Source: a virus
Lineage: Duplodnaviria; Heunggongvirae; Uroviricota; Caudoviricetes
Reading direction: 5' to 3' (one strand)
Length of the DNA stretch: 4,877 nucleotides
Virus record (IMG/VR): IMGVR_UViG_2713896778_000023
Part shown: in pieces, positions 1 through 3,000 of the stretch
Layout: the number at the start of each line of letters is the position of its first letter
How positions within the stretch are numbered: position 1 is the first letter of the stretch
Program-made: the position numbers

Positions 1-3000
1 TTCATTGACTGGTTCTTTGACTGGTTCAAAAGAGTGACTGGTTCTGGGTGAATCTCCTGCACTACCCCCTGGTGCAACTCCTGCACCACCTGGTGAATTT
101 GCTGCACTAGGTAGTGAATTATTTGCACTACCACCTGGTGAATCTTTTGCACCATCAAGACGAAGAAGATAAATATTGCTCGAGTTCCCTTTTTCACCTT
201 TCCGGGAAACTTTTTTTACCAGTCCAGATTCACAAAGAGCCGTAATATGATTCATCACAGAACGTTTGCTAATCTCGCACTGATCAGCAATATGCTGATA
301 GCTGGGCCAGCACTCGCCCTGATCGCTGGCATTATCAGCCAGCTTAATCAGAACCAGTTTTCGCAATGGATTTCCCACTCGAATTTTCATCGCTTTAACC
401 ATCAGCTCCATACTCATGCAGCACCTCCGAGATGCTTCATGTTTTTTCCGGAGCGAAAGGCTATAAGCGGCATACTGACGCGGTAACTACGGCCCAGCGG
501 TTCACAAATCACCTTCTGACATTCACGGTCAACCAGGCTAACACGTAGAACATGCCCTGCAGGTGTGGTGTACCACTGCCCCGGACGAGGACAACGGAAA
601 GTCTGATTGGTAAACCGTTTGAAAATATTCCGGATCATTTGCGCCCCCTTACCTCTGAAGGGTTCAGCGACAAATTTATGAGGCAGGCCAGTGCCGAAGC
701 ATCATTAATATAGTCATACAAGCTAACAGCCAGCGGAGATTCGGCTTTTGCCAACATAGGATAAAGCTGCTGCAGCCAGACCTGATGAATTGATGAAATG
801 TAGGAATAGAGAACGCTGGCGTTATGTGCAACGTCGCTCAGTACAGAGGGATTTGAAAGCTGTTTCTCCATCTGGTTAAAGGCATTGATGTATGCCTCTT
901 TGAACTGGGCAGCACGTTTACCCGTGAAACCCATAGCAAGAAACGCAAAGCCGTCGCGGGTTATTTGATAGCAAGGTAGTTTGCGGCCTGTGCAATCGGT
1001 GTAATCACTCACCGAAAAATTGCGGGAAGTGAATGATGCAGAGCATTCAAGCGTGCGGATCTTTTTCAGTACATCGTCATGACGTTTGGAGAAGAAGTTG
1101 GCAACAGCCAGGGATGAAGTAACAGCCTGACCATCAACGATGGCAATTTCAGGTTGAGTGAGGGTTGAGATCGTAGCCATGATGGCAGCCTCCGATAACA
1201 GTGAATTACCTTCACCACCGGAAACGCCAATTTCGCTGGTGGTGAACTGAACGGGGTTGGCGTAACCGGCGTTATCGGAAACCGGCGCACCTTTCGGTGC
1301 CCCCGTCCAGCCCACCATAATTTGGGTGTGCACAGACGCAGACGATAAAAAAGACGCTGGCGCGTCATATATCGCCGATAACATTTCTAGGACGCCAATC
1401 CCGGCACCCGCTTTATAAGGTGCCTGAACAGTGTAACGTCCCGGAATGGCAGAATCAATGTGCTGGTGGTCCTTCACACTCAACAAAATCACGCCTGAAT
1501 TTCCACAAAGGACTAAAGCACTCATGCGGGTAGTCTTTGCGAAGATAGATAACGCGCTGTGTTTCTGGTTCCCAACGAATAACATGAACATAAAGCCCTC
1601 TTCCGTCACGAAACCAGCGGTTAAGTTCCTGCACAACTCGCCCCCCACAGTCAGGTAAAGTTCTCTGTGGTTANNNNNNNNNNNNNNNNNNNNNNNNNNN
1701 NNNNNNNNNNNNNNNNNNNNNNNCACCAGCTGTTGCGACAAACGGTTATTTGCCGTTAAACTGTTCATGCGTTAGTTTCTCCACAGACACAAAACGCCAC
1801 GACGCCCGGAGCTGCACACTCGCGGGCGTCACTCTTTTCTGGAGCGCAAAAGATTTTGTAGACCAGTGCTGCATGCTCCTGGAGCTTCGAAATTGACAGA
1901 TACAACTCATCATTAATTGCTGTCTGCTCGTGTGGCTCCACTACCCCATCTTCGATTGCCGAACGAATCTGTTTTGAGTAACTCCCGATCTGTTCGATGA
2001 CTTCCAGCAGGCGCTGGTTTATATCGGCGTTCTCAACTTCCTCAATGTCAGGAAGCGATACAAACACCCCACCTGCAGACTGTGCGACAGCATCCGCAAT
2101 GTAGTGAGTGCCAGCCGCGCGCTGTAAAATCATTGCCCATCCCAGCGGGAAAATCTGATCGCCATCTGCACGAAGGCGGTTGAATAAAGCGTTCTCTGTT
2201 ACATCCAGCCACTCAGCAGCTTCAGCGTAACCCCCCGGCAACGCCGCGATAGTTTTTCTGACAGCTTTCACGTACCACTCAGGCTGTTTTTCCATTTTCC
2301 AGTGATGCTTACCCACGGCTTACCTCCTGTTCCTGTGGTTTAAACCCATTCTGGTTTTGGCTAGATTGAAAACGTGTCGGATAAAGAATCTGCATTTCGC
2401 TGATTTCACCCTTAAAAAAATTGGCCAGACGTTCTGCAAGATCGATAGATGGAATTTGTTCCAGTCTTTCAATACGACTCAGCGTCGCTGGATTGACCTG
2501 AACGCCCGCAGCAACATGCTGCAAAGTAAATCCGTGCGCCTTACGCACATTCCGTAATGGTGATTGCATATGACCTCCACATATTGCGTGATGAGCATAT
2601 TATTTCACGCAAATATTTTGCGCAAGTTGATTTGCTTAATGCGCAATAAAGAAATGTAATAAACGCATGAACATAGGAAATCGAGTCAGACAACTTCGCC
2701 AGGCGAAGAACATGAAAATCGCCGATCTCGCTGAAGCAATAGGAGTGGATGCGGCGAATATCTCACGCCTGGAAACAGGTAAGCAGAAACAATTCACTGA
2801 ACAAGCCCTGAGTAATATTGCCAGGAGCTTAGGTGTTGATATTGCTGATCTCTTTACCTCAGACTTCAAAAGTAATACTGTATGTAAAAACAGTATTAGT
2901 GAGGATGTTGCGCAGGTGAAGGATGTATTCCGTATTGAAATGCTGGATGTCAGTGCCAGTGCGGGAAATGGCCTTATCCAGGGCGGTGATGTCATTGATG

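Follow-up and report, generated by a model that had tools for sequence, protein, structure and literature searches.

A probable replication origin inside the initiator gene of a lambdoid-type Escherichia coli prophage

The window analyzed here is the whole 4,877-nucleotide stretch of virus record IMGVR_UViG_2713896778_000023, which represents the early region of a lambdoid-type Escherichia coli prophage with its rightward operon on the minus strand. Positions 1–152 probably hold most of the replication origin of this prophage, placed within its own initiator gene. The putative origin has two parts: five 15-bp dyad iterons (GTGMA-N5-TKCAC) at 21–24 bp spacing and, next to them, an element built of GAAYCAGTCA repeats. 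The repeats exist, their DNA itself is under constraint, and their sequence changes in step with the predicted recognition helix of the initiator. The principle of an origin within an initiator gene is known from lambda; here the initiator family is not that of lambda O, and the proposed origin core is different.

The two parts lie side by side in the initiator gene, of which the window holds the 5′ portion:

1–417, minus strand: replication initiator gene, 5′ part (139 codons), ATG at 417–415, truncated by the left window end
138–152: iteron 1 in gene order, GTGAATCTTTTGCAC on the plus strand and GTGCAAAAGATTCAC on the coding strand, pattern match
114–128: iteron 2, GTGAATTATTTGCAC on the plus strand, pattern match
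93–107: iteron 3, GTGAATTTGCTGCAC on the plus strand, pattern match
72–86: iteron 4, GTGCAACTCCTGCAC, a perfect 5-N5-5 palindrome that matches on both strands
63–71: spacer between iterons 4 and 5, a C5/G5 tract, TACCCCCTG on the plus strand and CAGGGGGTA on the coding strand
48–62: iteron 5, GTGAATCTCCTGCAC on the plus strand, adjoining the conserved element
1–45, minus strand: conserved element, candidate origin core, cut by the window end, AGAACCAGTCACTCTTTTGAACCAGTCAAAGAACCAGTCAATGAA on the coding strand

The pattern GTGMA-N5-TGCAC identifies these five plus-strand sites and none elsewhere in the window. Because the palindrome at 72–86 also matches the minus strand, the count over both strands is six, against a mean of 0.03 in 200 dinucleotide-preserving shuffles, none of which reached six. 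Each iteron is a 15-bp 5-N5-5 dyad, perfect at 72–86 and matching at 4/5 positions per arm in the other four, and successive units start 24, 21, 21 and 24 bp apart. The preliminary description of this DNA had the number of units, their period and their dyad symmetry right, and set the array about 8 bp too far to the right, at 56–160 instead of 48–152. Tandem Repeats Finder missed the array, whose units are too divergent outside the arms, and reported only a 12-bp period at 1–28.

This geometry is shared by relatives. In nearly all of 164 distinct arrays, half-site centres lie 10 bp apart and units repeat every 21–24 bp, roughly two helical turns, which is the geometry expected if dimers were to line up along a single face of the helix. 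In 140 of these arrays, a gap of exactly 2 nt separates the last dyad from AGAAYC. Most of them also carry YAGGGGGTR or YACCCCCTA between the last two iterons, independent of iteron type, and among related loci (L001–L292) the G5/C5 tract of this spacer occurs in either orientation.

On the minus strand, the repeat region encodes initiator residues 89–139 (GAKDSPGGSANNSLPSAANSPGGAGVAPGGSAGDSPRTSHSFEPVKEPVNE), with the array alone accounting for residues 89–124. The full-length initiator has 269–274 amino acids in the closest relatives; homologues of full length are present in mEp460, PhiR47_1 and locus L005, the closest relative, which is identical to the window gene part at 412 of 417 bases. 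Pfam HTH_36 (PF13730) matches residues 17–67 (45.2 bits against a cut-off of 25, E = 8.4e-12), the DnaD N-terminal domain (PF21984) remains just under its threshold (26.2 bits, cut-off 27), and a weak match to PF13814 is also present. PHROG families 8540, 4617, 391 and 270, described as 'replication initiation (O-like)', place the initiator in that category. Phage_rep_O (PF04492), the N-terminal domain of lambda O, was matched neither by the window protein (E ≤ 0.01) nor by a full-length homologue (E ≤ 0.1), so the earlier label of an O-like protein does not hold in the sense of lambda O family membership.

An AlphaFold2 model (mean pLDDT 69.7) predicts helices at residues 17–28, 40–47 and 51–64, followed by a β-hairpin wing formed by residues 67–73 and 79–85:

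163–369, minus strand: region modelled as a winged helix (AlphaFold2)
226–267, minus strand: predicted recognition helix KRSVMNHITALCES, residues 51–64, the third helix of the model

The pLDDT is 83–92 at residues 11–70 and 67–77 across the wing (residues 71–90), and drops below 50 at residues 94–128, in agreement with the earlier proposal that the repeats encode a linker, here the one between the two domains. Foldseek returned generic winged-helix matches only, all with E > 1e-3, including DnaD-N 2v79 (E = 0.0066, TM-score ~0.4–0.47) and the staphylococcal RepA N-terminal domains 4pql and 5kbj; the DnaD-N and RepA matches overall have E of about 0.007–0.016. A sequence search of the PDB with the initiator gave no homologue.

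Within the family, each type of predicted recognition helix is paired with its own half-site:

helix [KR]RS[VA][MI]x: half-site GTG[CA]A
helix KR[ST][VA]MR: half-site GTGAC
helix DRSTVR[KR]: half-site TAGGC
helix [GS]RS[ST]VK: half-site GGGCA
helix SK[ST]AVR: half-site TGCCA

To quantify this pairing, the 6-mer distance between arrays was compared with the distance in 12 helix residues across 70 representatives of less than 93% identity. Array distance correlates with helix distance when the rest of the domain is controlled for (partial Mantel r = 0.59, p ≤ 0.0005), but not with the rest of the domain when the helix is controlled for (partial r = 0.07, p = 0.14), although such tests leave some shared ancestry in place. 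The pairing also recurs across unrelated hosts: Vibrio phage D67, Aliivibrio prophages and coliphage mEp044, for instance, all combine KRTAMR with GTGAC-N5-GTCAC. Comparative evidence thus strongly supports a model in which the iterons are read by the initiator's own N-terminal winged-helix domain. The helix and iteron pairs would then predict replication specificity, and hence the incompatibility of co-resident prophages.

These features suggest a mechanism for initiation. Dimers of the N-terminal winged-helix domain would bind each dyad via the recognition helix (residues 51–64), and the bound dimers would build a nucleoprotein complex similar to the lambda O-some. The abutting element, rather than an AT-rich tract, would be the place of duplex opening or helicase delivery, and the exchangeable C-terminal domain would recruit the phage's own helicase or loader module. 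Analogy with lambda O and ori-lambda is what leads us to propose that the initiator binds these sites, that the DNA acts as an origin and that the element plays this part.

Several points weigh against this model. The AT-rich unwinding element that had been expected beyond the window edge is absent: in L005 no such tract adjoins the array, and the 60 bp behind the element are 60–63% GC. The element itself is 43–47% GC in L005, the least stable 30-bp windows of the gene (30–37% GC) are found either inside the first iterons or upstream of them, and the L005 gene has no strongly AT-rich tract at any position. Neither a DnaA-box nor an IHF consensus is present in the L005 initiator gene, which leaves the conserved element as the only identified DNA feature for the strand-opening step. 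The window ends inside this element, so that the C-terminal and partner module of this particular prophage lie outside it, and the literature searched yielded no biochemical or genetic evidence of binding or origin activity for this initiator family. The shared ancestry that persists in the Mantel tests belongs here as well.

An array without an adjacent AT-rich unwinding element could instead be regulatory, with the dyads bound by the initiator or another phage protein for autoregulation, as a transcriptional roadblock or for copy-number control, and with the true origin elsewhere. Iteron-binding initiators, such as plasmid Rep proteins, commonly autoregulate. The sites, however, are located ~270–370 nt into the coding region and not at a promoter; a scan of L005 2300–3400 gave no promoter-like site in or around the gene and no terminator-like site. 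The cI–cro intergenic repeats, which are the repressor operators, were rejected as relatives of the iterons because their sequence differs. Autoregulation would also leave unexplained why the array is held in a fixed register with an element conserved across Gammaproteobacteria. Finally, an N-domain followed by linker iterons and a partner-specific C-domain is the layout of lambda O, whose iterons serve as the origin (PMC7466680). A regulatory array with an origin elsewhere is therefore unlikely, and the following paragraphs return to the proposed origin and its second part.

The element of about 35 bp begins right after the last iteron and consists of GAAYCAGTCA direct repeats (AGAAYCAGTMACTCTYTTGAAYCAGTCAWWGAACC). 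In the window, TGACTGGTTC occurs exactly on the plus strand at 6–15, 18–27 and 35–44, corresponding to three direct coding-strand copies of GAACCAGTCA; with one mismatch allowed, a single shuffle of 200 reaches three matches. To avoid a bias towards repeats, homologues were picked by N-domain peptide patterns only, with one genome per species. Among 80 loci retrieved in this way from species-representative genomes, 69 carry the element with at most 6 mismatches in 35, except for one locus with 8, and their hosts include Pseudomonas, Aeromonas, Shewanella, Marinomonas, Xenorhabdus and Enterobacter.

We then compared codons at identical amino acids between pairs of loci whose N-domains are no more than 80% identical. 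Codon identity reaches 0.906 in the element, as opposed to 0.383 in the N-domain, over a range that spans Vibrio to Pseudomonas, and nucleotide identity is 0.86 and 0.64, respectively. A rare AGA codon is kept in the element of 75 of 78 loci, even in Pseudomonas, in contrast to the invariant KLVLIK motif, which is encoded by many different codons. Within one and the same gene, the first two repeat copies lie in different frames and encode TSH and EPV, so the repeat exists at the level of DNA and not of protein. Further repeats in other frames, with different peptides, are found in Shewanella prophages, mEp044, Aliivibrio prophages and Pseudomonas aeruginosa phage U7, and amino-acid changes in the element are tolerated (T/I, F/S/L and P/S). 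By these measures, the element appears to be a DNA element rather than a peptide motif, and the TGACTGGTTC repeats rank as the most conserved DNA of the locus, which supports the earlier suggestion that the triple repeat at 6–44 is part of the same origin.

More distant relatives carry variant repeats, with four copies of GAACCGTCA in phage phi2 and three of AACCATCA in Vibrio phage 1.236.O. The two P. aeruginosa phages differ, U7 having a repeat of the AACCAGTCA type and phi2 the GAACCGTCA variant; these very few cases hint that the element may follow the initiator lineage rather than the host. An inverted AGAACCAGT copy at 349–358, within the KLVLIK codons, was considered as a long-range inverted repeat with the element and rejected as chance, being present in only 2 of 87 homologues.

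Different C-terminal domains start right behind the element, the window contig breaks at it, and the copy number of its 12-bp unit is variable. These properties would be compatible with a module-junction sequence kept alike by recombination between phages, or with a peptide motif (RTSHSFEPV), neither of which would be a component of an origin. Hosts that range from Vibrio to Pseudomonas are, however, unlikely to share phages, and synonymous sites are 91% identical in the element compared with 38% in the adjacent protein domain, which is the more strongly conserved of the two as protein. A peptide motif is also at odds with a DNA repeat that is kept in three frames with different peptides, that tolerates amino-acid changes, and whose first two copies occupy different frames of one gene. 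We give little credence to either version.

The element is a candidate for strand opening, for helicase entry, or for binding by an invariant part of the N-domain or by a host factor. Tentatively, and with less confidence than we have in the origin as a whole, we suggest that the GAAYCAGTCA element (1–45) is a previously undescribed, family-wide origin core that replaces the AT-rich unwinding element. As such, it might be recognized, perhaps in single-stranded form, by an invariant face of the N-domain, or else by a universal component of the host replisome. If so, the steps that lead from a bound initiator to strand opening or helicase entry would differ in this family, and its helix and iteron pairs would constitute a natural specificity code of a winged-helix family. 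In any case, a conserved element that is not AT-rich calls for a mechanistic explanation.

Length variation in this region was noted among close relatives (L012–L084, gene nt about 330–430). The 12-bp GAACCAGTCAAA unit is present in 1–4 copies, and some prophages have a second copy of one 21-bp iteron.

For the iterons, constraint at the DNA level can be separated from constraint on the linker peptide. Among 20,000 synonymous recodings of the linker that followed the codon usage of the window, no version contained more than 2 dyad sites, compared with 5 observed, or more than 2 copies of GAACCAGTCA, compared with 3 observed. The coding-strand GTGCA-N5-TTCAC of the window encodes SAGDSP; related genes with similar recognition helices carry GTGAA-N5-TGCAC, inverted on the coding strand, and encode SENFAL, SEKSAP or SESAALP. 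Half-sites are also kept in different reading frames among related genes, where they specify unrelated peptides. Across 86 protein-retrieved homologues, the linker has 2.19 perfect 5-N5-5 dyads per 100 nt, against 0.24 in the DNA encoding the N-domain and 0.16 in that encoding the C-domain. At least three dyads are present in the linker of 79 of these 86. Among 39 distinct arrays of the window's own type, polymorphism rises from 0.019 at half-site positions to 0.045 in the five central bases and 0.063 in the spacers that separate the iterons (permutation p = 1e-4).

Because recoding, inverted and other-frame half-sites, the density of dyads in the linker and the conservation of half-sites independently point in this direction, the repeats are selected as DNA and not as peptide. 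Since the iterons must also be translated, they would dictate the sequence of the linker between the protein domains. That the repeats are instead a slippage-prone, low-complexity protein linker of the SPGG type, with the DNA periodicity a by-product devoid of any role at the DNA level, agrees with periods that are all multiples of 3, with a unit copy number that differs in close relatives and with the predicted disorder of the region, but it is largely refuted by dyads and direct repeats that recoding never regenerates, by unrelated peptides at inverted or other-frame half-sites, by dyad symmetry within units that has no protein-level explanation, by co-variation of the array with the recognition helix and by spacers more polymorphic than half-sites, and we regard it as scarcely credible.

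The earlier placement of an origin inside the initiator gene is strongly supported on comparative grounds (dyads in 79 of 86 homologues, co-variation with the helix, half-sites in other orientations and frames). Membership of the lambda O family, an AT-rich element and the exact coordinates given for the array are not.

The C-terminal side of the gene is where relatives part. Full-length relatives have a separate C-terminal module, and C-terminal domains and partner genes diverge directly behind the element:

L005: partner module a DnaC-like loader
other relatives: partner module a DnaB-like helicase, a P-like protein or a primase-helicase
mEp460 and SfV type: partner module not recognizable

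This variety agrees with a split between one module for origin recognition and another for helicase recruitment. In close relatives, at least three C-terminal tails are joined right behind the element (…IPAGFRG, …KSSNKLTF and …GSTNFNW). The Shigella phage SfII (L293, 1429–2370) encodes an initiator of the 'O protein family' with a different N-domain and with CGTCA-N5-TGACG iterons. It shares its C-terminal tail, EDPYFKASYDNVDYSQIPAGFRG, with the mEp460-type protein, and here too PerC and Dam come next, which makes it an apparent example of C-terminal modules being shared between initiator families.

The left end of the window falls inside 12-bp GAACCAGTCAAW copies, and an identical 139-aa partial protein (P0001) comes from E. 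coli contigs of at most 5967 bp. The assembly probably broke at this point because co-resident prophages share the element and diverge right after it.

The closest known parallel in layout is lambda O with ori-lambda, in which the origin lies in the middle of gene O and comprises iterons and an AT-rich tract (PMC7466680). In lambda, and also in the 933W and P27 Stx phages, 4–6 dyad-symmetric iterons with a spacing of about two turns lie mid-gene, as in the window. The lambda iterons also specify the linker that joins the N-terminal domain, which binds the iterons, to the C-terminal domain, which recruits the helicase loader, an arrangement predicted here. Like the window gene, the lambda gene follows cro and cII in the rightward early operon, and its iteron copy number varies between relatives (PMC7466680). 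Unlike lambda O, the window initiator has no Phage_rep_O match and matches HTH_36 and, weakly, DnaD_N; its iterons are 15-bp 5-N5-5 dyads of unrelated sequence; the family has the GAAYCAGTCA repeat element where lambda has an AT-rich tract; and its partner modules are diverse or absent.

A similar arrangement is found in the RepA_N-type plasmid initiators of Firmicutes, in which a DnaD-N-like winged-helix N-domain binds iterons located centrally in its own rep gene and the C-domain is host-specific. SPP1 G38P likewise resembles the arrangement in the window. The modelled winged helix weakly matches chains of the staphylococcal pSK41/pTZ2162 RepA, which we take to be PDB 4pql, 4pt7 and 5kbj, as well as DnaD-N 2v79. 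No sequence relationship to RepA_N is detectable, and whereas RepA_N belongs to Gram-positive plasmids, the window family belongs to phages and prophages of Gammaproteobacteria and is rare in plasmid records. The 29 plasmid records with the initiator family are mostly phage-sized circles (~40 kb) and are uninformative on autonomous replication.

Among Stx phages, the 'Eru' modules of the Eru6-like type have the order repressor, cro, Rha/Ash and then an HTH_36 protein with a weak PF13814 match (PMC8951638). The likeness to the window rests on this gene layout, the identity of the window protein with the named Eru6 protein being unconfirmed. An assignment of the window gene to Eru2A (273 aa) was rejected, as the matching Stx2c phage has a PerC-like gene and Dam downstream and not a DnaB-type Eru2B. 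The two 'Eru' papers classify gene content only and mention neither iterons nor an origin; they describe the replication proteins of Eru phages as wholly unknown, and a 2022 survey (PMC8951638) says as much of the replication machinery in the non-lambdoid 'Eru' Stx phages. In the literature on SfV, ST64B, YfdO-type or Eru initiators, we found no description of iterons or an origin, although an earlier description elsewhere is possible.

The initiator family is very common. Near-identical DNA is present in phages mEp460, PhiR47_1, SfV, ST64B and cdtI and in several Stx2a and Stx2c-converting phages, with the Stx2a and Stx2c phage DNA being 95% identical to the window. Window positions 1–1600 are matched in 1565 of 5426 complete E. 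coli genomes, and the initiator N-domain also occurs in prophages of Pseudomonas, Aeromonas, Shewanella, Vibrio, Xenorhabdus and others. Stx toxin production appears to depend on phage DNA replication (PMC7466680), and the family includes Stx2a and Stx2c-converting phages. The present analysis yields a precise, testable map of the putative origin, and the locus is a clear example of a predicted array of DNA-binding sites that would dictate the sequence of a protein linker.

The initiator gene is preceded in the rightward early operon by cro, the CII-like gene and Rha. The neighbouring genes are:

2667–3359, plus strand: cI-like repressor gene
2569–2309, minus strand: cro-like gene
2316–1765, minus strand: CII/CP76-like gene
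1768–635, minus strand: Rha/Ash antirepressor-like open reading frame (ORF), 377 aa
638–414, minus strand: 74-aa ORF

Two Rfam families score above their gathering thresholds on the minus strand inside the Rha/Ash ORF (635–1768): the C4 antisense RNA at 1235–1322 (RF01695, 82.8 bits) and the isrK Hfq-binding RNA at 1347–1423 (RF01394, 56.6 bits). These matches suggest that the antirepressor may be under antisense control similar to that of P1 immI, and that the 377-aa ORF may be non-coding in its 5′ part. In the same ORF, 50 consecutive N at 1674–1723 mark an assembly gap or a masked stretch. Positions 4253–4816 (plus strand), to the left of the repressor, hold a YfdR-like gene for an HD-domain 5′-deoxynucleotidase, a placement shared with the K-12 CPS-53/KpLE1 prophage; its Pfam matches are weak and below the cut-off.

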